A stretch of DNA of 64,000 nucleotides from Alphaproteobacteria bacterium (lineage in GTDB: Bacteria; Pseudomonadota; Alphaproteobacteria; CAAHEQ01; UBA3637). Both the position numbers and the translations under genes were made by a program. The stretch lies in assembly GCA_015062245.1 (NCBI GenBank), contig SUVA01000003.1:21372-85371 (forward strand), in the 5' to 3' direction. Within the stretch, counting starts at the first letter, position 1; each line of letters opens with the position of its first letter. Shown here in pieces: positions 13,278 through 43,868 of the stretch. Under the pieces are notes generated by a model. The model saw nothing but the letters and a program-made list of their open reading frames with translations, searched no databases and was not told the origin of the DNA.

Positions 13278-13295
13278 GTTGAAATGATCAACCCG

Positions 13296-13327
13296 AGGCC
13301 TTCCTTAAAAAGAAGGCCTCTTTTTTA
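13296..13327 (+). terminator. Rho-independent terminator after PFOR (gaggccttc-loop-gaaggcctc + T-run)
   Basis: Perfect 9-bp stem followed by TTTTTT read directly. Confidence 0.5.
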
Positions 13328-13521
13328 ATAAGGAAATAAAATGAGTAAATTTAGATTTGGGTACTTTATGGCCATGTGGGCTATCGCTGAAGGTGAAAAA
13401 AGAAAACAAGAAGAACGCTATCATCAACGTCAAGAAAGTAAAAGAAATTTACAAAAAATCCACAAACAGAATGTTTCTAAATCATTAGGACAACATAGAT
13501 ATACGTATTTATTTAATCGTT

Positions 13522-14061
13522 CTAGATAATTTCCAATTTGATTTTATTATCTTCGTGCGTCCATTTTAGGGTGTGATTTTCTTGATTTAGCTGATGCATC
13601 AACCATTCTGCTTCTAATGTTTGAATGTCAGATGATGCCGGTGGATTATTTGATAAAATTTCAAGTATATTATTATTTAATATCAAATCGTTAGATAATA
13701 TAGTTAAAGTATTATCTGAATATAAAATTTCACCACCGGCCATGACAAATTGAAGTCCACAGGCGACCAAAGAAAGTTCTAATCGTGTATTAATTTCGCC
13801 TGAAAAAGAAATTTTTGGTCCCAATGTTTTTAAATAATCTAAAATCAGGCCCTTATCAATGGATTTTGTTTGTGTTCCGAACAATGCCCGATAATACTTT
13901 AATCTGGCCATCAGCATATCCGTATTTTGTTTTAACATTTGAGGGGCTTCATTGACAAAAGACGGATCTAAATTCATTAAATCAACCGTGCTGGATAGAG
14001 CTCCGATACCACCGGCTAAATCGTGTGAAAGTTTGACCGTTAAACACTCAGAAAAATTCAT
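13522..14061 (-). CDS. chpT: ChpT-like histidine phosphotransferase (CckA-ChpT-CtrA relay)
   Basis: N-terminal LTVKLSHDLAGGIGALSSTVDLMNLDP and later LMARLKYYRALFG parallel the ChpT/HPT motif (LCHDLISPxxAIxxGLELL ... FxRxAFG); start overlaps stop of upstream gene. Confidence 0.55.
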   Translation of the reverse strand: MNFSECLTVKLSHDLAGGIGALSSTVDLMNLDPSFVNEAPQMLKQNTDMLMARLKYYRALFGTQTKSIDKGLILDYLKTLGPKISFSGEINTRLELSLVACGLQFVMAGGEILYSDNTLTILSNDLILNNNILEILSNNPPASSDIQTLEAEWLMHQLNQENHTLKWTHEDNKIKLEII

Positions 14062-14951
14062 TGTTTTCCTTTCTTCTGTTTCATTGAATTGAAAATCTTT
14101 TGACCAATTTCATCAACATTTTCTATAAAATTGATATTGGCTTTTTCAAAGGCTAGTTTTTTTTGTTCAATGATATCCGAAAACAAAACGGATTCCATGC
14201 CAAGTAAAGGCCTTTTTGTGGAACGGTTTAAAAAACGCCCCGGTATGTAGGCAAATATCTTTTTATGTTTTTTTTGCGTTTTGATAAAATCGGCCAATTC
14301 TTGTTCCAATTGGCCATGTATTTGACCGATAATTAAAATAATTTCGGAAGTTTTATCCTTTAAAAGAGATTGAACAACGGGAACGAAAGTTGTCCCGATA
14401 AGATGATCTGTTCCCAAAGTAACACATTTTGAAACACCTAAACCCTGTTCATTTAATTGAGAAACAGCTTCATATATCAAAGAGGAGGAACGCCCGACAA
14501 TGGCAACTTTTCCGCTTTTAAATAAATGAGAGGGTAGAGTTCCGACTAAGGCTTGATCAACATTTAAAATACCGTTAGAGGATGGCCCCAAAAGTTGAAC
14601 CCCATTTTCTTTTGCAACCATTTTCATCTTTAATGCATCGTGCATGGGGACATGTTCAGTTGTGCAGATTATCAAAGGAATGCCGGCTTTCGCGGCCTGA
14701 ATAACGTCCTCTAATGCGTGGGCAGGGGTAGAAAAAATAACACTGATTTTAGGTGCGTATTTTTTTACAGCCTGTTTTACTTGATTAAAAACAGGAATTC
14801 CCATCAAATTGGTTAAATGACTTTCTTGACTGATACCTGCAACAACATTTGTTCCATATGCCAAAGCTTTTTCCAATTGATATAAGCCCATTTCACTGGT
14901 AACACCTTGAAAAATAACGGGGGTTTTTGAATTAGGAAAGCAAAACATCAA
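14058..14951 (-). CDS. Succinyl-CoA synthetase alpha (SucD)-like protein, apparently lacking the catalytic phosphohistidine
   Basis: Collinear with SucD (VIFQGVTSEMG, GISQ, IVGRSSSLIYEAV, LGTDH). At the position of the conserved KRMGHAGAII it reads KRPLLGMESVLF (no His). The CoA-contact Cys of GPNCPG is GPSSNG here. Confidence 0.6.
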   Translation of the reverse strand: MMFCFPNSKTPVIFQGVTSEMGLYQLEKALAYGTNVVAGISQESHLTNLMGIPVFNQVKQAVKKYAPKISVIFSTPAHALEDVIQAAKAGIPLIICTTEHVPMHDALKMKMVAKENGVQLLGPSSNGILNVDQALVGTLPSHLFKSGKVAIVGRSSSLIYEAVSQLNEQGLGVSKCVTLGTDHLIGTTFVPVVQSLLKDKTSEIILIIGQIHGQLEQELADFIKTQKKHKKIFAYIPGRFLNRSTKRPLLGMESVLFSDIIEQKKLAFEKANINFIENVDEIGQKIFNSMKQKKGKQ

Positions 14952-16087
14952 TATCCCTCCTTGGCTTGTTTAATAACCTCTTGAACGGCTAAATCTATTT
15001 GTGATGTATAATAAAAAGGAATAAGTGATTTTCGTAAAATGGCTTCGCCTTCCGTTGCATCCAAGCCCACCATTCGCACAACAATAGGAACGCCTATGGC
15101 GATTTCACCAGAGGCATCAACTAAGCCCTGTGCAATGTTTTTGCAACTGGTCAATCCGCCAAAGATGTTGACCAAAATGGCATCCACATCCGGTTCGGCC
15201 AAAGCCAATTTCAATGCGGTTGTGATGGATTTAATGGTTGGATTTGTTCCGACATCCAATAAACAAGCAACGGAAGCATTGTTTTTATGGATTAAATCAA
15301 CTGTGGCTAATCCCAGCCCGATTCCGTTACTTAAACAGGCAATGTTTCCGTTTAATTTCGTATATCTGAAAGCATTTTTCTTGGCTAATGCTTCCCGTTC
15401 ATGTCCTAATTTTGTTTCACGACATTGTTCCAATTCAGGAAAACGAAACAAAGAATCCGGATCAAAAACCAAACGACCGTTGACCACAATTAATTTTTCA
15501 TTTTTGCACACAACCGGACTTAATTCTATGGCCATAGCGTCATAAGATAAAAACAACTGAAATGCCTTATTTAAAATTGAAATAAATTGTTTTTTTATTC
15601 CGGCTTTTTTTAATTTTAATTTGTCACAGACTTTTTTGTAAAAATCGTTATTCAGTTTCAAATTTTCAATTTGCAAAGATAATATTTGAGAAGTATTTTG
15701 ACAGATGGAAAAAGTGATTCCTGGATTTTCAAAATCAACACGAAAAACCAAACGGCAAAAAGCATCCAATGTCGTGGCCTGTTCAATATAAAGGCGTTGT
15801 ATAGTGGAAGAAAAAACGGGGTTCGGTTCATGAAAAGATTCGCCTAAAATTAAAGTGGCGCTTTGTTCAACTTCCTGAGGTGTTGTGGCAAAAAATTTGT
15901 GTTGCAGTTCTTCATCAGTATAGGGTGGGGCAGAGGTCATCATTTGCGGTTTTAACCAAAAAGCATCGCCCCCCATTTGCTGGGCAACTTCTTTGGCCTC
16001 TTCTGGTGTATAGGTAATCTGACCGTCCAAAACAGGCAATCCTGCAGAACGAAAGATTTGCTTTACATAATATTCGTTTAATTCCAT
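14948..16087 (-). CDS. Succinyl-CoA synthetase beta (SucC)-like ATP-grasp protein with degenerate nucleotide-binding loop
   Basis: N-terminal MELNEYYVKQIF (cf. MNLHEYQAKQLF). C-terminal ligase-CoA motifs are conserved (NGNIACLSNGIGLGLATVDLI, ILVNIFGGLTSC). The GGRGKAGG ATP-binding loop is replaced by PQMMTSAPPY. Confidence 0.6.
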   Translation of the reverse strand: MELNEYYVKQIFRSAGLPVLDGQITYTPEEAKEVAQQMGGDAFWLKPQMMTSAPPYTDEELQHKFFATTPQEVEQSATLILGESFHEPNPVFSSTIQRLYIEQATTLDAFCRLVFRVDFENPGITFSICQNTSQILSLQIENLKLNNDFYKKVCDKLKLKKAGIKKQFISILNKAFQLFLSYDAMAIELSPVVCKNEKLIVVNGRLVFDPDSLFRFPELEQCRETKLGHEREALAKKNAFRYTKLNGNIACLSNGIGLGLATVDLIHKNNASVACLLDVGTNPTIKSITTALKLALAEPDVDAILVNIFGGLTSCKNIAQGLVDASGEIAIGVPIVVRMVGLDATEGEAILRKSLIPFYYTSQIDLAVQEVIKQAKEGY

Positions 16088-16137
16088 ATTCCCCTCTTTT
16101 TTACTTAATCATATAGAGATAAAAAGATATTGTCAAG

Positions 16138-17004
16138 TTATTTATCACTTAATGATTTTAATTTTTGCCAAAAAGTTTTTGGTGGATTTTTTTGAATCAA
16201 GGATGATAAAAATTCAGGCAAAGCCTTTTCCAATTCGTTCATTTCATAAAAGGTTTGAACTTTTCCGTCTTGGATTAAAGAAACATCACCCGTTTCTTCG
16301 GATACAACCAAACATAAAGCATCTGTTGTTTCGCTTAAACCGATGGCTGCACGATGACGTGTGCCGTATTTCCAACTGAGAGTTGCATCTTTTGAAAGCG
16401 GAAGAATGACGCCGGCCTTGGCAATACGATTTTGGGAACAGACAACCGCTCCGTCATGCAAAGGAGTATTGACAAAAAACAAATTTATCAAAAGCTCTGT
16501 TGAAATTTTGGCATCTAATGAGATTCCGCCTGTGCAAACGGTATTGACGGGTTCCATTCTTTCAAAAGCAATTAAAGCGCCCGTTCTGTATTTTCGCCAA
16601 TAGGCAATGGATTGTATTAAGATGTTGACTAAGCTGTCGGATAATTGTTTTCGTTTTGCTTTTGTGAAAAAGGTTACCTGATTGCCCAATAATGACATTA
16701 ATCGTCTGAGTTCGGGCTGGAAAATAATAACAGCCGATAAAATCAACAATAAAATAAAGTTTCGCAGAAGTCCGGCTAAAATTCTTAAATGAAAGAGCAT
16801 GAAAAATTCACTGATCAACCATGTAAAAACCAAAAAGAAGAGCATTCCTTTAACTGTTTTTTCGGCCGGTGAGTTTTTAACAAAGCTTTTATAACAAAAC
16901 CATAAAAAGAAGACAATAATAAATAATTGCAACAAAAAGCTGACCCATGAGAGCCCGGTGTTTCCCAATAATTCTTGCAACTCTGTTTTTAATGTGCCAA
17001 TCAT
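16138..17004 (-). CDS. cdaA: Membrane diadenylate cyclase (c-di-AMP synthase) CdaA
   Basis: Three N-terminal TM helices then IIFQPELRRLM (matches B. subtilis CdaA IIFQPELRRAL). DAC domain motifs PLHDGAVVC, RIAKAGVILPLS, YGTRHRAAIGLSETTDALCLVVSEETGDVSL. Confidence 0.8.
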   Translation of the reverse strand: MIGTLKTELQELLGNTGLSWVSFLLQLFIIVFFLWFCYKSFVKNSPAEKTVKGMLFFLVFTWLISEFFMLFHLRILAGLLRNFILLLILSAVIIFQPELRRLMSLLGNQVTFFTKAKRKQLSDSLVNILIQSIAYWRKYRTGALIAFERMEPVNTVCTGGISLDAKISTELLINLFFVNTPLHDGAVVCSQNRIAKAGVILPLSKDATLSWKYGTRHRAAIGLSETTDALCLVVSEETGDVSLIQDGKVQTFYEMNELEKALPEFLSSLIQKNPPKTFWQKLKSLSDK

Positions 17005-17095
17005 AAAAATCCCCTTTCTTTTTGTATCGTAAATAAAAAGTATGAATAAGTCAAGAAAATATCTTGCAAAAATTAAAAAAATATGCTTATATTAA

Positions 17096-18217
<1,122 letters not shown>

Positions 18218-18268: not shown

Positions 18269-18383
18269 CCAACTATTACACCAAATAATAAGTATTTTTG
18301 ATAATATTTTATATTTTTAGTTGCAATATGTATGAAATATACCTATAAGTATAAAACAAACAATTTAAAAAAGGAGAAAAAAA

Positions 18384-18665
18384 ATGTTAGTTTGTAAAAA
18401 TGTTATTGTCAATGGGCGCAGAACCAGTATGCGCTTGGATCGTGAAACGTGGATATCTTTATCGGATATTTGCCAAAGGGAAGGGATCACAATTCACGAA
18501 TTGTGTTCTAAAATTGATGCCAGCAAAGGTGGATCGGGTTTATCATCGGCCACACGTTTGTTTGTGCTGACGTATTTTCGGTTTTTGTTGAATCAATACG
18601 AACACCATAATATCATGCAAAACAAAACCTTTAATCCAGAACCGGTGTTAAAACAAACGGTATAA
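18384..18665 (+). CDS. Ribbon-helix-helix (RHH_4-type) DNA-binding protein
   Basis: RTSMRLDRETWISLSDICQREGITIHELCSKIDASKGGSGLSSATRLFVLTYFR follows the alphaproteobacterial RHH_4 pattern (RSISL...ALxEIAxxxG.S...L..ID..R..GNLSSAIRVFVL); AGGAG RBS. Confidence 0.55.
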   Translation: MLVCKNVIVNGRRTSMRLDRETWISLSDICQREGITIHELCSKIDASKGGSGLSSATRLFVLTYFRFLLNQYEHHNIMQNKTFNPEPVLKQTV

Positions 18666-18683
18666 AGGTTGATATCAATATAA

Positions 18684-18712
18684 AAATCCCCCACTGCTTG
18701 GTGGGGGATAAG
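18684..18712. terminator. Bidirectional terminator hairpin (atcccccac-tgcttg-gtgggggat) between convergent genes
   Basis: Perfect 9-bp GC-rich stem flanked by A/T runs on both sides. Confidence 0.4.
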
Positions 18713-18728
18713 TGAGGTATAAATCCAC

Positions 18729-19919
18729 TTATGGATCCCGACAAATGGCGGAGTTGTTGAGGTAGCCACTGTAGCGAGAGTCGTCGAGGACAGCACCGCT
18801 GTTGTGGGAGACAAAACGCGTGCCACAGGAACCTGACTTGCTATTATCCGCTAGCCAAAGACTACCAGATTCTCCAAAGACATCTGTACTTCTAATCGCT
18901 ACATTTGTGGCCGAACAATCACTATCTGATCCGCCATTGCAAATACAAGGTTTCGTTGCGTAATTTGAGTGTGAACTGTTAAAATAACAGTGTGTATTCG
19001 TGCCACTGTCCGCCAGCCCTAAATCAGACATAGTCACAAGTTGTTTGCCATGCGCTTGACACAGGTTGGACGCACTCCACCAGTTCATTGTGCCTGAACT
19101 CTTATACACCGTTAAAGCACCACCGGGCAGGTTGAGGGTTTTGACCGTAAAATCATTTGTATCATCCAATTCTCCCTTATCCGTACACGTTCCCGTCCCC
19201 GGATTCGTACAACTACCATCACTGAACTTGCAGTATTTTGTCGTATCCACATTGCCTTCGGCATCCTTACAATCGCCGTTCTGGGTACACCCACTCGTTG
19301 GTTTGGCGCAGATGTATGTTGAGGTATTCGTCCCCTTTGCACAATACGTCCCTTCGGCGCAACATTCTGTCCCGCACATAAAGACACCGTTCGGACATTT
19401 GCATTCGCCGTGGAAACACTTTAGTCCGTCATCACATGTTACATTCTTACAGGCTGGGTCAAACTTTCCCCCTGTTGGGCTTTTTTCGCCTTCGGCCTCT
19501 GTGGTTGCCAAGTTTTTGTAATAAGTGATGGTAGCATTGCCTGATTCATCACAAACAACATCACGCACCATACCGCCTTTGGAATTTTTCATTTGTGTGC
19601 AAACATCTTTATCAATGCCCGATAGTGTTAAATTAAATTGAGTGCCGTTATCGGTAAGAGTGGTTGCATAGCCTGAGTTGGCAAAATCGGTGATTGTTGA
19701 TGGTAATTTCCCGTCATTGGTCATGGCATAAGCCGACACCGTTGTTGCCATCATGGATGCTTTATGCAAGGCCTCATTGGCTTTGTGTTTTTCCACCGCT
19801 TTGGAATAGGCCGATATGCCACCAACACTCAACACGCCCACAATGGCCAGCACGCCCAGCATTTCAACCATACTGCGCCCCTTTTGACTTCTTTTATCAT
19901 TTTTGTTTGTTTTATTCAT
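18729..19919 (-). CDS. Type IV pilin-like N-terminus fused to Cys-rich EGF-like repeats and a C-type-lectin-like C-terminal domain (396 aa); candidate adhesin
   Basis: Class-III signal-like N-terminus QKG|RSMVEMLGVLAIVGVLSVGGISAY with Glu at +5 and a hydrophobic helix; central CxxGxC repeats (CDDGLKCFHGECKCPNGVFMCGTECCAEGTYC); C-terminal WWSASNLCQAHGKQLVTMSDL resembles a CTLD start. Confidence 0.5.
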   Translation of the reverse strand: MNKTNKNDKRSQKGRSMVEMLGVLAIVGVLSVGGISAYSKAVEKHKANEALHKASMMATTVSAYAMTNDGKLPSTITDFANSGYATTLTDNGTQFNLTLSGIDKDVCTQMKNSKGGMVRDVVCDESGNATITYYKNLATTEAEGEKSPTGGKFDPACKNVTCDDGLKCFHGECKCPNGVFMCGTECCAEGTYCAKGTNTSTYICAKPTSGCTQNGDCKDAEGNVDTTKYCKFSDGSCTNPGTGTCTDKGELDDTNDFTVKTLNLPGGALTVYKSSGTMNWWSASNLCQAHGKQLVTMSDLGLADSGTNTHCYFNSSHSNYATKPCICNGGSDSDCSATNVAIRSTDVFGESGSLWLADNSKSGSCGTRFVSHNSGAVLDDSRYSGYLNNSAICRDP

Positions 19920-19939
19920 AATTTTTACTCCCTTTATTT

Positions 19940-20140
19940 AAACAAAACACGCCTTGATGAGAGGCGGGTTGGAAGTTCGAAACTATAAACGCTATAGCAT
20001 TACATATTTGGGTTGGATAACCCTTATTTTGTAACCATCCAACCCTGACAGTTGGATTTTACGTCTTTCAGACGGCGTTTGAAGGATTTCGAAGCCTCCA
20101 CTGCGAGAATCACCCGACAGCAGTTCCAGTATAAAATGAT
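19940..20140. other. GC-enriched, hairpin-rich intergenic block; candidate structured ncRNA or long 5' leader (unclassified)
   Basis: Local GC clearly above flanking AT-rich DNA; nested inverted repeats (gggttggataaccc / ggttggat...atccaacc, cgtctgaaagacg); no ORF. Confidence 0.2.
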
Positions 20141-20170
20141 TAAATTTTTTTTGCAAGTAAAAAATATGCT

Positions 20171-20199
20171 TGACATTATAAAATCATTTGTGTAAAATA
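20171..20199 (+). promoter_or_regulatory. Near-consensus sigma70 promoter (TTGACA-17-TAAAAT) immediately upstream of the tRNA-His 5' remnant (probable native tRNA-His promoter)
   Basis: ttgacattataaaatcatttgtgtaaaat read directly; it drives only the truncated tRNA fragment at 20216. Confidence 0.4.
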
Positions 20200-20209
20200 T
20201 AAACTATTC

Positions 20210-20256
20210 ACCAGATGGCGGATGTAGCTCAGTTGGTTAGAGCGCTGGTTTGTGGT
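20210..20256 (+). repeat. Distal attachment-site repeat: 47-nt exact copy of the 5' half of tRNA-His (leader through anticodon loop)
   Basis: accagatggcggatgtagctcagttggttagagcgctggtttgtggt is identical to 27809-27855; the sequences diverge right after the anticodon GTG. Confidence 0.7.
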
Positions 20257-20619
20257 TCCGCTTTTCAACTTCCAAATTTTCTGATAAACACCGCATAAAA
20301 GACAAGAGCAGAATTCTTGTATTGAATTTGTTATAAGTCCTGTCATTATTGTTCTATCTTGAAATTTGAATGAATGGAAAGGTATCTTTTGGGCGCTTAA
20401 ATTTTGGAAATTCAGAACGCCTAAAAGCTCAAACCTCATTTTCTATCCCTAAACTCTCCCTAAACGATGGAATAATCACTTTTGTAAATGGGAAAAAGGA
20501 CTTTTTTCTTTGGCATTTACATTAGCCTCATTAGCCGCATTTGCCCCTTACATTAATATTATGCCCGAAATTTTTGAAAATGTCAAAAGAAATTAAGGGG
20601 TTATTTAAAAATAAACGCG

Positions 20620-21108
20620 TTATTTTTCACGAAATGATAGCATAAAATCCAAATTTCTTTTTGTAATCCAAAAAGAAAAAAGTAATCCTAAGAATGAAAT
20701 AAGTGCATAATAGGAAGAGATAACTAAACATACTTTCCATTCTGTTGTGGAAAACAAAAAGGCAAAAATTATTGATAGTAAGCAGGTCATAATTGTCCAT
20801 GATAGAAAATTGAGTAAATTTTTCAATGGTCGATATTGTTCTTTTTTCCAGCCATCTTTGTATTCTGATTTTAAGTAATTGGTGTAATCTTCTTTATCAT
20901 ATAATTTTTCTTTCATATGTGGTATTAGGAAACTTTGCATTGTAAATAAGATGGAGGCAATAGCAAAATATGCAGAAATCCAACTTCCTGTTCCATTAGG
21001 ATCTTTTGGAACTAATGGAATGAGGGTCAATACAAAAGATAATTCCTTTACTTTGAAAGAAATAACCAAAGGAATAATAAAAGTAAATATTGTAAAAAAT
21101 ACCTTCAT
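20620..21108 (-). CDS. Small integral membrane protein (162 aa, ~4 TM), island cargo
   Basis: Four hydrophobic segments (FFTIFTFIIPLVISF, ISAYFAIASILFTMQSFLI, LSWTIMTCLLSIIFAFLF, LVISSYYALISFLGLLFSFWI); 3 nt downstream of the 292-aa gene. Confidence 0.5.
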   Translation of the reverse strand: MKVFFTIFTFIIPLVISFKVKELSFVLTLIPLVPKDPNGTGSWISAYFAIASILFTMQSFLIPHMKEKLYDKEDYTNYLKSEYKDGWKKEQYRPLKNLLNFLSWTIMTCLLSIIFAFLFSTTEWKVCLVISSYYALISFLGLLFSFWITKRNLDFMLSFREK

Positions 21109-21111
21109 TTT

Positions 21112-21990
21112 CTAAATAATCCCTAAATCTCTACAGATAACATTTGATTTTACAAAATCTAACATATGAACAATAGTTGGATGGGTACTTAACTCTTCTG
21201 TATTAAATTTTTTTAATTCCCGTGTTACGTCATCGTAATCATAAGATGTTAATGGCCTAAAAATATTGTCTAAATTTATAACTTCCCTTTCTCCTTCTTC
21301 ATTTTTCCCAACCACTTTCAATTTTTTAGTACCTAATTCTTTTAAGTCAAGAATTTTAGGGATTATATCAGATAAAGGAGCCTTCCTTTTAAAAATTATT
21401 TGTTTTTGTTCGGATTTTACAAAATCAGGAGTAAAAATAGAACGTTTTGTAGATTGCTCTAAATACGATATTGAAGTGATTGAAAAAAACCTATTCAATG
21501 CCATAGAAGCTTCTTCAGCCTTTATTATTTGGATGCAAGAAATCTTATTTTTTCTCTTAAAGCTCAGTGACGAGCTGTCGTAGCCTTTTAGTGAAACAAA
21601 ATCATCAAAAAACTTTCTTAAAATTTTTTCTAACACAGATAATGAAGCAGAATTAGCATATGTCAACCATATCCCTGATGTAGTATTTTTATTCAAAATG
21701 AAAAAGTTGTATTCCGCACCATCTTTGATTTCGGCTATTTCTGTAGAATATCCCCCATTAGGATTTACTACTACTCTGCAATGTGCTGAGTAGTCTCGAG
21801 AAGAAAAAAGTAGTCCGGCGTAATAAGAGGAGGAAGCAACTGGTTGAATAAAAAGATTTCTCTTTTTTTTACAGATATCAATTGGTCCTTCTTTTTGAGA
21901 AGTTATATAATCAAAAAGATCTGAAATGGAAAAATCGATATCTTTTTGCTTTTTTAAAATAATTTTAAAGGGATATGCGTTTATATTCAT
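21112..21990 (-). CDS. Hypothetical cytoplasmic protein (292 aa), island cargo, no recognisable domain
   Basis: Long ORF co-directional with and between the XRE gene and the membrane-protein gene; composition typical of the element (very AT-rich, Lys/Ser/Phe-rich). Confidence 0.45.
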   Translation of the reverse strand: MNINAYPFKIILKKQKDIDFSISDLFDYITSQKEGPIDICKKKRNLFIQPVASSSYYAGLLFSSRDYSAHCRVVVNPNGGYSTEIAEIKDGAEYNFFILNKNTTSGIWLTYANSASLSVLEKILRKFFDDFVSLKGYDSSSLSFKRKNKISCIQIIKAEEASMALNRFFSITSISYLEQSTKRSIFTPDFVKSEQKQIIFKRKAPLSDIIPKILDLKELGTKKLKVVGKNEEGEREVINLDNIFRPLTSYDYDDVTRELKKFNTEELSTHPTIVHMLDFVKSNVICRDLGII

Positions 21991-22050
21991 CTAAGACTCC
22001 AAAAAAAACTGTACTATTTATAGCAGAATTTTAAGAAAAAATCAAATTGT

Positions 22051-22389
22051 TTATTTCATTTCCAAAAGGGCCTCAATCTGTTTAAGGGCGGTTTTGAGTG
22101 TCTTTTCATCCTGTCCTTCTAATAATCGGGTAATAGTCTTTAATGTGTCTGAATGTGGTTTGTTCTGTGTGGATATATCAGTCAATAAATCTTGAACGGG
22201 GACATTGAGTGCGTTAGCAAAGGAAAGAAGTGTTGTAATTTTGGGGTCACTGAGTCCACGTTCTACATTTGAAATGGTATTTATCATTTTACCGGATACT
22301 TCGGCAAATTCCTCTTGTGAAAGTCTTTTTTGTTTGCGTAAAACGGCAATACGTTTACCAAGCGTTTGTAAAAATACTTTATTTGTCAT
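22051..22389 (-). CDS. XRE-family HTH transcriptional regulator (Cro/cI-like)
   Basis: LRKQKRLSQEEFAEVSGKMINTISNVERGLSDPKITTLLSFANALNVPVQDLL = classic HTH_XRE; start placed at MTNKVFLQ (the upstream in-frame extension lacks an RBS). Confidence 0.7.
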   Translation of the reverse strand: MTNKVFLQTLGKRIAVLRKQKRLSQEEFAEVSGKMINTISNVERGLSDPKITTLLSFANALNVPVQDLLTDISTQNKPHSDTLKTITRLLEGQDEKTLKTALKQIEALLEMK

Positions 22390-22465
22390 AATACCTCTTT
22401 TGTTATGGTAGTATTTTCCTATTTTGCTGTGTAAAAGACCATAACGGTAAAATGTGTATTTTGGC

Positions 22466-22494
22466 TTGACATTTCTAAAAATACATATTATACT
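22466..22494 (+). promoter_or_regulatory. Sigma70 promoter (TTGACA-17-TATACT) for the PD-(D/E)xK-like gene
   Basis: cttgacatttctaaaaatacatattatact read directly. Confidence 0.45.
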
Positions 22495-22519
22495 GTGTTT
22501 ATTGATTACAATAAACACA
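22494..22519. promoter_or_regulatory. Perfect 11-4-11 palindromic operator (TGTGTTTATTG-atta-CAATAAACACA) between -10 and RBS
   Basis: Exact inverted repeat read directly; positioned to block transcription; the divergent XRE repressor is the obvious candidate binder. Confidence 0.45.
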
Positions 22520-22531
22520 TGGGAGTATGAA

Positions 22532-23467
22532 ATGAACGGTCCAAACATCTTCGATTATGCTACCAGTGAGCTCTCTCAAGATGCTTTTTTGTGTTATCTG
22601 TTAGCCTTTGGAAAAGAAAAATATAAAATGGATTTTCCGAAAGAGTATATGCTTGCTCATAAGTTTCTTGCAAAATGTGGTATTGATGAAAAAGAGGAAA
22701 TATTGTCCGTTGGACAACAGGTGGAACATATTGATGTTTTAATTATTACAACTTCCCACATTCTTATTATTGAAGATAAAACTTATACTGATGAACATGA
22801 TGATCAAATAATTCGTTATGTGAAAAATATGAGGAAATCTGAAGAAAAATTTTTAAATGATAAAAAAATTAAGGTATGTTTTTTAAAAACAGGCGATTAT
22901 GTTAAATCCTATTCTTCAAGTGATGAAAGTGTTTTACAAAATAAAGATTGTTGTTCTTTAAGACGTAAAAATTTATTGGAATTACTAAAGGATTATTATA
23001 AGTGTAATTTAGTATTTGAAATGTTTTATAAACGACTTCTTTCCGTTGAAGAAGCTATAGAACAATGTGATAGTGAAAATATATTTGATTGGAATCGCTA
23101 TAAATGGTTCGATTTCCTTTATAATACTTTAATTGAGAAAAAGAAAGTTTTTGACATAAAATGGGTTCATAATCCTAATGGCGGTTTTTATGGTTGTTGG
23201 TTTGGTTCTCATAAACTAGGAGAAATTGAGAAGTATAAACAAATTGAAATTCATTTCAATGAAAAGGGAACAGAATTTGTAGATTTGTGCTTAAAATGTT
23301 CATCTGAAAGTAAAGAGAAAACTCAGAAATATAAATCAGATATGGAAAAGTGGCAAAAGGAATCTGGTTTTAATCGTCCTGATCGTTGGCGTATTGGTCG
23401 GACAACAACCTATGCCACAAAACAAGCAATCAATGTTCGGGATATTCAAAACTTTATCAAAAAATAA
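22532..23467 (+). CDS. PD-(D/E)xK nuclease-like protein (312 aa), island cargo
   Basis: E...D...E-x-K arrangement (SELSQDAF ... HIDVLIITTSHILIIEDKTY) with the hydrophobic-strand context typical of restriction-endonuclease-fold nucleases; GGGAG RBS 6 nt before the ATG. Confidence 0.4.
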   Translation: MNGPNIFDYATSELSQDAFLCYLLAFGKEKYKMDFPKEYMLAHKFLAKCGIDEKEEILSVGQQVEHIDVLIITTSHILIIEDKTYTDEHDDQIIRYVKNMRKSEEKFLNDKKIKVCFLKTGDYVKSYSSSDESVLQNKDCCSLRRKNLLELLKDYYKCNLVFEMFYKRLLSVEEAIEQCDSENIFDWNRYKWFDFLYNTLIEKKKVFDIKWVHNPNGGFYGCWFGSHKLGEIEKYKQIEIHFNEKGTEFVDLCLKCSSESKEKTQKYKSDMEKWQKESGFNRPDRWRIGRTTTYATKQAINVRDIQNFIKK

Positions 23468-23496
23468 CAACTGAAAGGAAAGGAAGATGGCAAAAG

Positions 23497-23616
23497 TATA
23501 TGTAACACAGTATGATTATCAAGCAGATTTAAAAGTTTATAAAGTACAAAATGACTATCAGGCAAAATGGCAAACAAGCAATCCTTTTATTAGTCGATTA
23601 GGATAATATAACTCAT
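23497..23616 (+). CDS. Small ORF (39 aa, MAKVYVTQYDYQADLKVYKVQNDYQAKWQTSNPFISRLG) with strong RBS
   Basis: aggaaaggaag RBS then ATG; below the ORF-track cutoff; followed by a terminator. Confidence 0.25.
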
Positions 23617-23652
23617 AATAAGGCATGTCTTTGACTTTGAAAAAAATTTTAA

Positions 23653-23688
23653 AGGATAGGGCGGAAAAACTCCGCCCTTTTTCTTTCT
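23653..23688. terminator. Bidirectional terminator (gggcggaaaaactccgccc flanked by T-runs) between convergent island genes
   Basis: Read directly. Confidence 0.45.
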
Positions 23689-25925
23689 TACACGGAATCA
23701 AAAACTTCTGGATTTACTATATAAAGTGTTTTTTGACGACCCCTTGATTCCCCTGGTCGAGATATTTTTTTAGTTTTTAACCATCCATATTTTATCAAAA
23801 TAGAGGTTGCTTTTTCCGCTTGTTCCTTTCGCCGAATTCCAGGAACAACTGCGTTGTAATAGATATCCCTTAAGGTAAAGCTCTCAATTTTGTTGTTTAA
23901 GATATATTGAGCTAATTTTCTGGCTTCTTGCTGATATTCTGGCGCCATATAAATTCCATAAACACGTTTTGCCATAGGAAATAAGTACTGTTCATAAAAA
24001 TTTATAGCAGTATTAAGAGCATTTAACCCAATGAAATCAGGCTCTGGATTTTCGCTATCTGCCCACCATAAATATTCAAACATCAAACTTAAACGAACAA
24101 CAACACCCTGTCCTTTATTCAAGAAAAAACCCAATTTTTCATCTTCCCGTTCAATCGCTTGTGCAAAATGGACGTGTTTTAAGTACCACTGATTAAACAT
24201 TTCCTGAGCCTCATCAGAAAATTTTAATTGCTTTTTGGGATTCTCAGCATTATCCCCATAAGGATTGACTAAATTGAATAATTTTTTAAGTGCACGGAAC
24301 ACTTTTTCGTTATTCGGAGCTACTTTGGGGATAGCAGGGGCTACAACCTCTGGATAAGCCCAAAGAAAACGAGGGACAAGCCCGTCTTCGGCGTTACCCA
24401 AAAAGGCGTCTATGACCCTTTTAGGCTGGATAGTGCCAAAAATTGAAATAAGCAAATGTGGTACTTCAATTCTATCTTCCCCAAATTTTACACGATCGGA
24501 AGAATAATATTTACCATTATAGGTTTCAAGCCAAAAACTTTTTTCAGCGTTGCCACTGGTGTATCGATTCATTCCTGCTAACCATCCATACAGCTCGTCT
24601 CGAAAAACGATTGCCCCAGTTGTATTGTTTTGTAAGTTTTGAAGAAGTGCTTCCTGCGTTGTATCACAAAAACAAAAACGATATGATTGTGGTTTTGGAG
24701 GCTTATTCAAATTATCGGGAATCGTTTGTTTTTTATCTGGATTTTTTTTGATATCCTTATACCAGTTCTTTAACTTTTTTTCATAAGCTATATTTTCACC
24801 TTTCCAAACGTTATAAGCCCTCTCAAACTCTGGCTTACGTGATTTTTCCAAATCACATAAAATGCTTTTTATAGGACTGATAGTCGGCGTTTTTCTTGAG
24901 CTCGGATCTCCAACAATTCCCATAAAAAAACAGGGGTATTCTACAAAACCAGGCCATGGGGAAAGGCTGCGGGCTAATCCCATACAGGCACCCGTTGCTG
25001 CTATTAAAGAAAATCCAACATAGTCAACTGCTGCATTACAACTGGCAGCTGTTTCCACTACCCATTCTTCCATAGTTTGAAAACAATCGGTTTTCATCCT
25101 TGGAGCAGGTTCAATAATTTTTTCCTTTAAAATGGATAAATCAAGTTCTTGGAAATCTGGATTATCCAAGGTTTCAGAAAAAGAGATTGAATTTTCTAAT
25201 GTTCTTTCTACTTCTTCAATTTCAAGTCCACTTTGTAAAGCTGACTTAATAATTTTGTTATATATATTTGCCATATTTAAACTCCTTTCTTTGGCAAGTT
25301 GTTGGATGCGAATTGATTTTCGCAAAAGTGTATCATTGCGTTTACCCTCTGGGGCATTTGAAATGTCTTCCAAAAGTGCTGATATATCGTTAATTCTGGC
25401 GTTTTTGCCTGTTATAATTTCTAGCAACCATTCAGGCGCTTCTGGAAAAGTTAAATCATTAGGATTTACATTTTCCCAATGATATTGGTTACCGTTTTCA
25501 TGAACGGAAAAGGGGGCAACAATATATCCCCCGTCTGCACGTATATCAATATGCGGGGCAATTTTACTGGCGCTTGACCTAATAGTTATATTTTCGGGGT
25601 ATTTAAAATAAAGGTGTTTTCCTCGCCCTGTTAAAACGGCTGGGGCATTTAATTTACCATACTCTTTTTCCAAAAGTTGAAGTGATTCAAATCCTTCTTG
25701 TTCGTCAATATCAACTACGAAAATACCATTTTCTTCCCCAGTTGGGAGACCAATATTACAAGGGGAAAATTTTTCACTCCATTCCGTTATTTGTTTTAAG
25801 TCTGTTGTGGCTCCCTTAAAACCTGTTTTAATAAGGGGAGCCTTTCCACGATATTTCACGGGGAAGACTTTCATATTTAACCGAACATATTGTTTGGCGA
25901 TGTTATAAAAGTTGTTTTCAATCAT
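23688..25925 (-). CDS. Bifunctional DNA primase/polymerase (AEP Prim-Pol N-terminal domain) with C-terminal P4-alpha-like/DUF3987-type region; element replication protein
   Basis: VVDIDEQEGFESLQLLEKEYGKLNAPAVLTGRGKHLYFKYPENITIRSSASKIAPHIDIRADGGYIVAPFSVHENGNQYHWEN matches the Prim-Pol signature (lDiD...tpsGGrHlyf...G.DvRgdGGYvvaPpSvh.sG..Y.w); 745 aa. Confidence 0.75.
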   Translation of the reverse strand: MIENNFYNIAKQYVRLNMKVFPVKYRGKAPLIKTGFKGATTDLKQITEWSEKFSPCNIGLPTGEENGIFVVDIDEQEGFESLQLLEKEYGKLNAPAVLTGRGKHLYFKYPENITIRSSASKIAPHIDIRADGGYIVAPFSVHENGNQYHWENVNPNDLTFPEAPEWLLEIITGKNARINDISALLEDISNAPEGKRNDTLLRKSIRIQQLAKERSLNMANIYNKIIKSALQSGLEIEEVERTLENSISFSETLDNPDFQELDLSILKEKIIEPAPRMKTDCFQTMEEWVVETAASCNAAVDYVGFSLIAATGACMGLARSLSPWPGFVEYPCFFMGIVGDPSSRKTPTISPIKSILCDLEKSRKPEFERAYNVWKGENIAYEKKLKNWYKDIKKNPDKKQTIPDNLNKPPKPQSYRFCFCDTTQEALLQNLQNNTTGAIVFRDELYGWLAGMNRYTSGNAEKSFWLETYNGKYYSSDRVKFGEDRIEVPHLLISIFGTIQPKRVIDAFLGNAEDGLVPRFLWAYPEVVAPAIPKVAPNNEKVFRALKKLFNLVNPYGDNAENPKKQLKFSDEAQEMFNQWYLKHVHFAQAIEREDEKLGFFLNKGQGVVVRLSLMFEYLWWADSENPEPDFIGLNALNTAINFYEQYLFPMAKRVYGIYMAPEYQQEARKLAQYILNNKIESFTLRDIYYNAVVPGIRRKEQAEKATSILIKYGWLKTKKISRPGESRGRQKTLYIVNPEVFDSV

Positions 25926-25951
25926 TTTTTATCCTTTCATTTAGATTGAAT

Positions 25952-26365
25952 TTATTCTTCACAATTAAAAAGTCTATCCAAATAGCTACAAGCTGCTTCA
26001 ATGGTGTAATATACTTTTTTGTTTACACACACGTATTGGGAATGATCATCTCTTGTAATAACTCCTTCCAGCATAGAATCTTTATTTCGTAAAGTATTGC
26101 AATTTAGAAATCCGCAAACTTCACAGAATTTTGTTCTTGCGATTGTTTCACCATATGTCTTGATTTTTGCCTTTAATTTGTATAACAAATTTGGGCTGAT
26201 ATAATTTTTGATCATTTTAAAGACCTTTGTTTTTAGGTTATGGGGATCCCAGATTAAAACCACTGTTTTTCTGTTCCCACCTAAAAACGCAGCAAATCTT
26301 ATTTTCACCTTTTTATTTTTATTTATTTTATAAGTTTTTGATTTTAAATAATTATATCTAATCAT
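25952..26365 (-). CDS. Hypothetical Cys-containing protein (137 aa) between integrase and primase
   Basis: ORF only; CEVCGFLNC ... CVNKK ... C pattern suggests a zinc ribbon; start overlaps integrase stop. Confidence 0.35.
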   Translation of the reverse strand: MIRYNYLKSKTYKINKNKKVKIRFAAFLGGNRKTVVLIWDPHNLKTKVFKMIKNYISPNLLYKLKAKIKTYGETIARTKFCEVCGFLNCNTLRNKDSMLEGVITRDDHSQYVCVNKKVYYTIEAACSYLDRLFNCEE

Positions 26366-27542
26366 TTTCTGACTCCGAATTGAGCGTGCGAACAGCTTTA
26401 CGCAAAGAATTATTGGATAAATGTGAATATCTGAGGGTCATGGAAATATCAGAATGCCCTAAAAGTTCTTTAACCACAAAAATAGAATTTCCTTTTTCCA
26501 CAAGGCGACTTGCATACGTATGTCTTAATGTGTGAAAGACAACCTTTTGCCGTCTATCAGTGATTCCCTGATTGAGGCCCAATTTTTTCACGGCTCTTTC
26601 ATAAGTTCTTGATACATGTTCAATTTTTTTACCATTTCGGCTTGGAAAAAGGTGTTGATTTGTTTCTTTGTTTGGAAGTTTTGAAACTTCTTCAAAAACA
26701 CGATCTGTCATAAAGGCAAAACGGTTTTTCTTGTTTTTTGTATCTTTTAGAGTGAATTCTTTTTGATTCAAATTGACATCCGCCCAAGTCAGATTAAAAA
26801 TTTCTCCTGCTCGTAATCCACAGTCTGCCGAAATTAGAGCCATTAAATATACTTCATAGCTTCTCTTTTTAAGTTCTGTAAATAGAGCTTCCAATTCTTC
26901 AGCTGTTAAATAGCGTATGCGCCGATTGTCTTCTTTTTTACATTTTATTTTTGACGCAGGATTTTCCAAGCCAAAGTATAAATTTTCTTTTTTTGCAAAA
27001 TTGAACACTTGGCGCATAAGGGCAATCGCATAATTTTGACTTCGGACAGATAGTTGTTGATCTGCCATTATATTTTGCACCCTAATGAGGCTATTGCGGC
27101 TTATTTTTTCTAAGGGTAAAGAGCCAAAATAAGGTTCAAGCCATTTTTTAAATAAAACAAGCTCTCTATCATTTGTACTCTTTTTATGATATATTTGGCA
27201 ATAAGGCATATAACAAAGAGAAAAGATTTCCCTAAAAGTTTTGCTTTGAATACAATTCCTCTTATTACGTTCAAGAAGTTCATTGTTTTTCTTTTGTTGT
27301 TGTTGGGCTATTTCTTTTAAAGAGAATGCTGTACCAGCTTTTATACGTTGTTTTAAATCCCCTAATATATGATAAGCCTTTTCAGCTGTCCAACCCAGCG
27401 ATTTAAAACCAATCGGTTCTTCGTATTGTTTACCATTAACAGTATAGCGGATTGAAAAATAAATATCTTTCTTTCCTTGAGAGACACATTCTCTTTTTCT
27501 TACCCCTGGAAAATTTTTTGTCATTTTTACACTTCCTTTCAT
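26358..27542 (-). CDS. int: Tyrosine-type site-specific integrase
   Basis: Catalytic region HTLRHTYASRLVEKGNSIFVVKELLGHSDISMTLRYSHL (R...HxxR...Y); N-terminal SAM-like/arm-binding region; lies 270 nt from tRNA-His, reading away from it. Confidence 0.85.
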   Translation of the reverse strand: MKGSVKMTKNFPGVRKRECVSQGKKDIYFSIRYTVNGKQYEEPIGFKSLGWTAEKAYHILGDLKQRIKAGTAFSLKEIAQQQQKKNNELLERNKRNCIQSKTFREIFSLCYMPYCQIYHKKSTNDRELVLFKKWLEPYFGSLPLEKISRNSLIRVQNIMADQQLSVRSQNYAIALMRQVFNFAKKENLYFGLENPASKIKCKKEDNRRIRYLTAEELEALFTELKKRSYEVYLMALISADCGLRAGEIFNLTWADVNLNQKEFTLKDTKNKKNRFAFMTDRVFEEVSKLPNKETNQHLFPSRNGKKIEHVSRTYERAVKKLGLNQGITDRRQKVVFHTLRHTYASRLVEKGNSIFVVKELLGHSDISMTLRYSHLSNNSLRKAVRTLNSESEND

Positions 27543-27769
27543 GTGTTTTTTTGTTTGACAAAATTATCCCATATTTAAGAGAGAAAAACACGTCACTCAA
27601 TGCGTCACTCAGCGTTTTTCGTAAGTAATACATAACAAGTTTGATAAATATTTTAGGACAGCTTAATTTTTTAATCCCTAAATACCCCCTAAATTTTTGA
27701 GAATACATTTTAAAAATCTTCAAAAATAAAGGAAAATAGGTTTGAGAGGATAAAAATAGATTTTTTACT

Positions 27770-27798
27770 TGACTTTTGGTAAAAAATCTGCGAAAATA
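27770..27798 (+). promoter_or_regulatory. Weaker promoter-like sequence (TTGACT-17-GAAAAT) driving the intact tRNA-His; sits inside the element side of the repeat
   Basis: acttgacttttggtaaaaaatctgcgaaaat read directly. Confidence 0.3.
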
Positions 27799-27815
27799 AG
27801 GCTTATCAACCAGAT

Positions 27816-27893
27816 GGCGGATGTAGCTCAGTTGGTTAGAGCGCTGGTTTGTGGTACCAGATGTCGTCGGTTCGAGTCCGATCTTCCGCCCCA
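27816..27893 (+). tRNA. tRNA-His (anticodon GTG) with G-1 and encoded CCA
   Basis: Cloverleaf folded by eye: G-1, acceptor GCGGATG/CTTCCGC, D-arm GTAGCTCAGTTGGTTAGAGC, anticodon loop TTGTGGT, T-arm GTCGG-TTCGAGT-CCGAT, discriminator C, CCA. Confidence 0.85.
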
Positions 27894-27912
27894 TTTTTTT
27901 CAAGGAGTCTTT

Positions 27913-43100: not shown

Positions 43101-43178
43101 AAATAAAAAAACAAAAATCAATCACTAATTTTTATTGCTTTTTATAAAAAGTTAATATAAACTTAAAAAAAAGGATTT

Positions 43179-43868
43179 ATGATGCACATTTTAGTTATAG
43201 AAGATGACAAAATCACCAATCAAAACATCTGTCTTTTATTAAAAAAAGAAAAGATGATACCTGAATCTGCTTTTTGTGCCCATGACGGGTTAGAGTTGAT
43301 AAAGTTATATGATTACGATTTAATCTTACTTGACTTAATGTTACCGGATAGACCTGGTCTGGAAGTTTTGAAACAAATTCGCTTGCTGGGAATTAAAACA
43401 CCCGTTTTGGTGATATCCGGTTTACATCAAACGGAAAAGAAAGTGGATTGTTTAAATGCGGGGGCTGATGACTACCTGACTAAACCTTATGAACGAAGTG
43501 AGCTTTTAGCCCGTGTCAAGGCTTTAATTCGTCGCAGTTCAGGTTTGGCTGAATCAGTTATCAGAATCGGTAAAATGTCCATAGATATCAACAAAAAAAA
43601 TGTTTCTATTGATAATAAGACAATTCCCCTCACCCCGAAAGAGTATGCTTTAATAGAATTACTCGCTCTTAAAAAAGGGGTAACTGTCAGTAAAGAAACT
43701 TTCCTTAATCAGCTTTATGGTATTATGGATGAACCGCCTGACAGCAAAATCATAGATGTCTTTTTATGTAAAATGCGCCGCAAAATTAAAAAGGTTACAA
43801 ATGGCGAAGATTATATTCAAAATGTTTGGGGACACGGTTATATTTTAAAATCACCGGATAAAAAATAA
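43179..43868 (+). CDS. ctrA: OmpR-family response regulator, CtrA-like cell-cycle regulator
   Basis: MHILVIEDD ... DLILLDLMLPD ... receiver motifs; C-terminal winged helix; synteny with ihfA/MerR and presence of ChpT. Confidence 0.7.
   Translation: MMHILVIEDDKITNQNICLLLKKEKMIPESAFCAHDGLELIKLYDYDLILLDLMLPDRPGLEVLKQIRLLGIKTPVLVISGLHQTEKKVDCLNAGADDYLTKPYERSELLARVKALIRRSSGLAESVIRIGKMSIDINKKNVSIDNKTIPLTPKEYALIELLALKKGVTVSKETFLNQLYGIMDEPPDSKIIDVFLCKMRRKIKKVTNGEDYIQNVWGHGYILKSPDKK

Follow-up and report, generated by a model that had tools for sequence, protein, structure and literature searches.

Several enzyme homologues and pseudoenzymes serve as cell-cycle regulators in Alphaproteobacteria, among them KidO and GdhZ of Caulobacter and the pseudokinase DivL. 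These proteins tune the CtrA/division circuitry from a metabolic-enzyme ancestry or as an inactive homologue. Their ancestry is that of an oxidoreductase, a glutamate dehydrogenase and a histidine kinase, and their targets are FtsZ, DivJ and CckA; we know of none that derives from the two-subunit succinyl-CoA synthetase (SCS) or is genetically coupled to chpT. Metabolic input to the CckA-ChpT-CtrA relay is an open question. ChpT itself is treated as a passive shuttle, and no dedicated regulators are known for it. Here we analyzed a 64,000-nucleotide stretch (hereafter the window) of contig SUVA01000003.1 from an alphaproteobacterium (assembly GCA_015062245.1), in which two genes related to sucC and sucD, called here sucC' and sucD', run into a gene for a putative divergent ChpT, chpT', through overlapping stop and start codons. 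The closest described systems are the ADP-forming SucCD of E. coli (1SCU/2SCU) and ChpT of Caulobacter crescentus (4FMT/4FPP) and Brucella abortus (4QPJ/4QPK).

The minus strand of the window carries four intact open reading frames (ORFs) between 13522 and 17004, at the coordinates given by the initial annotation. From 5' to 3' these are cdaA (16138-17004), coding for a predicted membrane-anchored diadenylate cyclase, sucC' (14948-16087, 379 aa), sucD' (14058-14948, 296 aa) and chpT' (13522-14061, 179 aa). Profile searches recovered the domains called beforehand, namely DAC in CdaA, ATP-grasp_2 and Ligase_CoA in SucC', CoA_binding and Succ_CoA_lig in SucD', and an N-terminal ChpT match in ChpT'. 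The successive junctions are +50, -1 and -4 nt. Two ATGA overlaps had been announced; the one between sucD' and chpT' (14058-14061) is as described, but the other is not, since the minus strand reads TTGA at 14951-14948. The true overlap there is a single nucleotide within TGATG, the ATG of sucD' (14948-14946) sharing one base with the TGA stop of sucC' (14950-14948). An AAGGAGG sits 5' of this ATG, and the SucD' homologues all begin with MF, consistent with this start. Looked up as an exact sequence, SucD' read from the TTG gave no match, and public contigs call the ATG start.

SucC' and SucD' resemble E. coli SucCD in the adjacency of their genes, in the beta-then-alpha order and in an identical domain architecture; conservation covers the alpha-subunit fold of SucD', the C-terminal domain of the beta subunit and the N-terminal end of the alpha power helix. 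They differ from it in sequence (29-35% identity, and 220-226 bits against cut-offs of 336-375), in their catalytic residues, and in their context, which lacks mdh and sucAB and always continues with chpT. SucD' matched TIGR01019 with 222.8 bits (cut-off 353.2; E=6e-66 over residues 7-285) and NF004230 with 219.6 bits (cut-off 336), and its top sequence matches in the PDB were E. coli SCS alpha. At the catalytic site, RMGHAGAI of E. coli SucD, which contains His246, aligns with PLLGMESV in SucD', and GEIGG, which contains Glu208, aligns with GQIHG. A profile search collected 120 SucD' relatives sharing 37-98% identity with the protein of the window, and none of them has a histidine at the catalytic column. 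A second alignment (n=117) gave the same picture, with a histidine at the His246 column in 0/117 members (Met in 75, Thr in 17, Ala in 11, Val in 7), while at the column of Glu208, the residue that backs the phosphohistidine at site I of SCS, Gln predominates (93), with Glu and Asp at 10 each and Lys found as well. The canonical sequences used for comparison carry H246 and E208 in 42/42 cases, as they were chosen for having both.

The beta subunit shows parallel losses. SucC' scored 225.7 bits against NF001913 (cut-off 370) and is about 29% identical to E. coli SucC; the E. coli sequence used for this comparison matches the PDB segments obtained. The C-terminal Ligase_CoA domain is well kept (3.5e-16) and the ATP-grasp part is degenerate. 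The glycine-rich loop of SucC (residues 51-60, HAGGRGKAGGV) reads MMTSAPPYTDEE in SucC' and is replaced in 16/16 SucC' sequences compared, the Mg ligands N199 and D213 have become Ser and Asn in the SucC' of the window, and about 15 residues are missing from the central ATP-grasp subdomain. K46, E197, NGxGL and FGGxTxC are retained; for the canonical C-terminal motifs NGAGLAM and FGGIVRC, the SucC' of the window has NGIGLGL and FGGLTSC, and both motifs are conserved across the family. Judged by these alignments, SucC'D' cannot act as a succinyl-CoA synthetase, in line with the initial claim that the pair is not an ordinary sucCD and has lost its catalytic apparatus, and the loss of catalytic residues appears ancient and fixed.

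Are these genes still under selection? The dN/dS ratio between close species, approximate because dS is near saturation (~1), was 0.03-0.04 for sucC' and 0.06-0.08 for sucD', and the corresponding values for cdaA and chpT' were 0.04-0.06 and 0.09-0.12. All four genes are under purifying selection. The reading frames of sucC' and sucD' are intact in every lineage, and the SucD' family has fixed motifs of its own (PLLGM, GQVHG, TEHVPMHD). The AlphaFold2 (AF2) model of SucD' has a pLDDT of 90, and SCS alpha chains match it at TMq 0.81-0.88. Scores far under the equivalog cut-offs and lost catalytic residues are what decaying sucCD remnants in a reduced genome would show as well; we reject this explanation, which has next to no chance of being right given dN/dS values of 0.03-0.08, intact frames, fixed family motifs and a confidently predicted fold.

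Alternatively, the same constraint could mean that SucC'D' is still enzymatically active, as a highly divergent CoA ligase or a related metabolic enzyme with altered chemistry; its place beside chpT' would then reflect hitch-hiking in an operon, with no functional link. Both proteins are similar to SucC and SucD over their full length (E about 1e-65), the purifying selection is strong, the host is an anaerobe-like gut bacterium with a PFOR gene next door, and NCBI labels family members as succinate--CoA ligase. Yet the phosphohistidine is missing from all 117 members and the phosphate loop of the ATP-grasp domain is lost. To our knowledge, every characterised member of the superfamily (SCS, ACLY, citryl-CoA and malyl-CoA synthetases, ACD) uses a phosphohistidine. 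Hitch-hiking, moreover, does not explain why the overlaps last down to 41% SucD' identity while all flanking genes changed, and we consider this explanation very unlikely.

Part of the old active site survives, so that binding of a ligand or a phosphoryl group by SucC'D' is plausible. Taking the roles of CoA-contact residues to be those of SCS structures, we found that Q13, G14, T16 and E97 of the CoA motif are kept in at least 90% of the SucD' members, that G20 and T96 are kept too, and that K42 is present in 66/117; G17 is changed to Ser or Thr, V72 to Ser, P73 to Thr and N122 to Ser. Among the phosphate-cradle residues, conservation is at least 95% for the N-terminus of the power helix (S153, S/T155, L156, E159) and for G245, and at least 90% for G207 and G211. 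The AF2 model has its lowest confidence in the former His loop (residues 241-255), the only low-confidence part of the modelled fold core. Such a pattern would also fit a remodelled SCS whose missing histidine is supplied in trans, the phosphohistidine of ChpT replacing the lost His246 loop in a preserved site I cradle. In one direction, SucC'D' would charge ChpT from acyl-CoA and phosphate, giving an input independent of CckA; in the other, ChpT~P would be drained into acyl-phosphate or acyl-CoA, as by a metabolic phosphatase. The losses are indeed specific to the mobile His loop and nucleotide site II, the cradle residues and the NGxGL and FGG motifs of the beta subunit are kept, and ChpT, the obligate partner, has the carriage of a phosphohistidine as its sole known role. 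On the other hand, the E208 position is not fixed (Q, E, D or K, with Gln in most members), the four CoA-contact positions listed above are replaced, the chemistry is without precedent, and a histidine on a helical bundle may not reach site I. We therefore regard catalysis with a histidine in trans as quite unlikely. If true, it would be a new kind of input to a two-component phosphorelay, in which the acyl-CoA/dicarboxylate energy charge could directly add phosphate to the CtrA relay or take it away, going round CckA or working against it.

The last gene of the set had been called a ChpT-type phosphotransferase, and a family match, a clade profile and the predicted fold agree with this call. 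ChpT' has no Pfam match, so the ChpT of these genomes goes unrecognised; its match to the NCBIfam ChpT family is limited to the N-terminal 60 residues (E=3e-6), with 26.7 bits against NF046025 (cut-off 225). PF10090 misses the ChpT' of the window and matches 7/17 clade members (best 1.3e-6), and a profile built from the clade matches Brucella ChpT 4QPJ with E=0.005. His13, the putative phosphorylation site on the first helix of the bundle, lies within SHDLAGGIGA, a motif invariant in 17/17 ChpT' clade members, and aligns with the HD motif of 4QPJ. The AF2 model (pLDDT 93) has ChpT as its top 7 PDB matches (4QPJ, 4QPK, 4FMT, 4FPP), at TMq 0.76-0.82 and E-values from 1.7e-10 to 3.6e-12, and histidine kinases match it at TMq of 0.54 or less. 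A DHp-like helical hairpin and a pseudo-CA domain are thus predicted as in the described ChpT proteins, together with the histidine in an HDLxxxxxA motif, and we take the gene to encode a short, divergent ChpT. It differs from them in its shorter length (169-182 aa in lineages with the trio, the two NCBIfam ChpT profiles having 204-211 positions), in its identity of about 18% to the solved structures, with scores below the family cut-offs, and in its translational coupling to a pseudo-SucCD pair, which is not described for any studied chpT. In some alphaproteobacterial groups, ChpT orthologues have been difficult to detect (PMC2877005, PMC8116508), and a ChpT' that went unrecognised fits this remark.

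We then compared the locus across its clade, which consists of uncultured Alphaproteobacteria sampled in metagenomes of gut and rumen. AspRS, searched for a finer placement, matched only entries titled 'MAG: Alphaproteobacteria bacterium'; the order may be RF32. Scanning genomes for ChpT' motifs gave 13 loci. Ten species show a divergent gap gene followed by cdaA-sucC'-sucD'-chpT', and locus L022, from yak rumen, shows dnaE-sucC'-sucD'-chpT'-ileS with no cdaA nearby; in L019, which ends inside sucD', only sucD'-chpT' is visible. The 1-nt overlap between sucC' and sucD' and the ATGA overlap between sucD' and chpT' are both present in 11/11 trio species, the cdaA-sucC' gap varying from 11 to 54 nt. 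Because both overlaps occur in every one of these species, they are in all likelihood not due to chance, and the initial proposal of a translationally coupled unit holds for sucC', sucD' and chpT'. An independent metagenome scan with SucD' motifs (L027-L036) placed ChpT' directly 3' of SucD' wherever the sequence continues.

The association extends to distant relatives. In an exhaustive search of representatives, the next-nearest SucD relatives, P0029 and P0030 (41-43% identity), also lack the histidine, and on their contigs sucC'-sucD' is followed by a ChpT-like gene of 172-182 aa through overlapping junctions. The distant lineages L038, L039, L042 and L044 hold the trio at 41-48% SucD' identity, and hhalign of the gene 3' of sucD' against the ChpT' profile gave a probability of 98.8-99.9% in these four loci. 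In L046, the contig ends at sucD', and the start of sucC' is overlapped by a stand-alone receiver gene. This receiver (4496-4861, 121 aa) best matches those of hybrid kinases (BarA, 114 bits; CpdR, 52 bits), and PtsP, an EI-Ntr protein with a GAF domain, is encoded upstream of it. The genes flanking the trio vary by lineage (PFOR, PolA/GcrA, IleRS, dnaE, murG, Rho) and, because they differ, selection appears to act on the trio itself. Judged by this distribution, the conserved entity is sucC'-sucD'-chpT' and not the four-gene set.

Some putative partners of ChpT are encoded in these genomes. As the initial annotation held, the host has a CtrA-like response regulator, encoded on the plus strand at 43179-43868, 29 kb from chpT' and outside the operon. 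It matches CtrA NF045991 with 289 bits, below the cut-off of 350, the next-best family being PmrA (177 bits), and it is 52% identical to the CtrA encoded beside the trio in L039. In the L039-L041 lineage, a bona fide ctrA (356.8 bits, cut-off 350) is convergent with chpT' and follows it directly. GcrA is found in L007, and relatives carry GcrA and DciA. The CtrA-like regulator of the window is the presumed downstream target of ChpT'. The CtrA-box pattern TTAA-N7-TTAA was found 5 times in the window against 7.8 expected, a count not above chance, and none of these matches lies near the operon; one, in the region 43152-43868, lies 13 nt upstream of the start of the CtrA-like gene.

The fourth gene, cdaA, was considered separately. 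The described CdaA-CdaR-GlmM system of Firmicutes has a membrane-bound cyclase of the same type, with the DGA and RHR motifs intact as in the CdaA of the window (LHDGAVV and GTRHRAA). This CdaA scored 199.2 bits against TIGR00159, above the cut-off of 188.8, and 3e-39 for DAC; CdaA_N was matched at 4.5e-4 (20.8 bits, below the 23.8 cut-off). On these matches, CdaA is predicted to be a bona fide member of the diadenylate cyclase family. It differs from the Firmicutes system in its surroundings, being divergent from gap and followed by the trio. The Pfam-annotated genes, which cover nearly all of the window, include no YbbR or phosphoglucosamine mutase and, as the initial annotation had noted, no cdaR, glmM, mdh or sucAB.

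In 10/11 species of the genome scan, cdaA lies 5' of the trio on the same strand, 11-54 nt from sucC'. In the window, the best sigma-70-like match of the region, TTGACA-17-TATGAT (11/12; 16108-16136, minus strand), falls within the 50-nt gap between cdaA and sucC'. TTGACA followed by a TAxxAT-like box occurs at the equivalent place in 6/10 species, and the remaining 4/10 have a gap of only 11-35 nt, which lacks a promoter-like site. Another promoter-like site, TTGACT-17-TACGAT (9/12, by consensus match only), lies 5' of cdaA at 17026-17054 on the minus strand, in the region common with the divergent gap. No terminator-like hairpin was found between the genes of the window's operon, the cdaA-sucC' gap included. 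The likeliest arrangement is read-through from cdaA plus an internal promoter, so that cdaA is probably co-transcribed in part with the trio. At the other end, the hairpin at 13295-13320 carries its T-run on the plus strand, which leaves chpT' lacking a T-tract terminator. A 62-aa ORF on the plus strand (13341-13529), with a AAGGAAAT ribosome-binding site, converges on chpT', with an 8-nt overlap at the chpT' stop codon; JGI contigs annotate this ORF as a gene.

These data bear on the four-gene module of the initial annotation, in which cyclic di-AMP (c-di-AMP) made by CdaA would be the signal, and SucC'D' the receptor or adaptor passing it to ChpT and CtrA. The close and consistent position of cdaA in ten species, the likely co-transcription in the four species with short gaps, the lack of a terminator in the gap of the window, the intact CdaA under purifying selection and the partial Rossmann-type nucleotide pocket retained in SucD' all speak for it. 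Against it, the trio stands without a nearby cdaA in nine loci (L022, L030, L033, L037, L038, L039, L042, L044, L046), and the metagenome scan with SucD' motifs found cdaA beside the trio only in close relatives. The loss of the catalytic residues is older than the association with cdaA, the 11/12 promoter-like site separates cdaA from sucC' in the window, and Rfam at gathering thresholds returned five tRNAs over the window and no ydaO (c-di-AMP) riboswitch or other element. SucCD is also not among the c-di-AMP receptor folds known to us. The four-gene set as a conserved module did not survive this comparison, and cdaA seems to have come to lie upstream of the trio at a later stage, and only in the sub-lineage of the window. 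As the trio recurs without cdaA and a promoter-like site separates the two, a role of c-di-AMP is argued for by adjacency, and we consider it unlikely.

The explanation that we retain, and to which we give an even chance of being right, is that SucC'D' is a ligand-sensing pseudoenzyme heterodimer that binds ChpT and gates the phosphorelay. SucC' and SucD' would descend from succinyl-CoA synthetase; catalysis would be lost, but the fold would remain, the subunits would still pair, and the pockets for ligand and phosphate would be preserved in part. Through the overlaps of stop and start codons, SucC', SucD' and ChpT would be made in fixed proportion. From these features we infer that the heterodimer binds ChpT, or its phosphorylated His13, and that a small-molecule ligand makes SucC'D' gate the flow of phosphate from CckA through ChpT to CtrA and CpdR. 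The physical complex, the sensing of a ligand and the effect on phosphotransfer would together tie cell-cycle control to the metabolic state of the cell in this gut and rumen clade. Several points weigh against this proposal. Synteny with overlapping codons speaks for co-expression and not for physical interaction, the more distant loci L023 and L024 of the genome scan carry a related ChpT of 203 aa without adjacent sucC'D', and the dN/dS values are approximate, as noted above. In the same two loci, chpT is preceded by a conserved 307-aa protein (L023, 7050-7973; L024, 7068-7991), apparently secreted and of no obvious family by eye.

Other features of the window were also recorded. The gap gene, divergent from cdaA (17114-18217, plus strand), encodes a type I GAPDH (TIGR01534, 428 bits, cut-off 367). 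It is found at the equivalent position in 10 species (the comparison took in L007, L020 and L021) as two sequence types, either 91-97% or about 50% identical to that of the window; the latter type is 335 aa long. Two GAPDH types at one position suggest replacement in place. Between gap and a tRNA-His gene (27817-27893) lies an apparent integrated element (18300-27900), which looks like an insertion because infA and uvrB directly flank gap in the relative L009. Its genes encode a tyrosine integrase (26358-27542), a Prim-Pol/DUF3987 protein (23688-25925), PDDEXK_4, HTH and RHH_4 proteins and a Cys-rich protein of 396 aa whose N-terminus is prepilin-like (18729-19919), and the GC content drops to 0.31 inside it, at 20-24 kb. 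The window also encodes a 1646-aa ankyrin-repeat (Ank) protein (465-5405). An Ank protein adjoins the trio in L044 (5085-5588), and a VirB4-type ATPase lies near the trio in L042 (9447-11888). The Ank proteins and the VirB4-type ATPase hint at a host- or protist-associated lifestyle of the clade.

Our literature searches found no paper linking ChpT with SucCD-like proteins and nothing relevant on SCS pseudoenzymes, on cdaA in Alphaproteobacteria or on SucD paralogues devoid of the histidine. In public annotation, members of the SucC'/SucD' family appear as succinate--CoA ligase, CoA-binding protein or hypothetical protein. Because of the label succinate--CoA ligase, metabolic reconstructions of these metagenome-assembled genomes would wrongly credit them with a step of the tricarboxylic acid cycle. 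A pseudoenzyme pair coupled to chpT across a large uncultured clade is a concrete candidate for regulation at the ChpT step, and the trio points to an undescribed link of metabolism and cell-cycle control.

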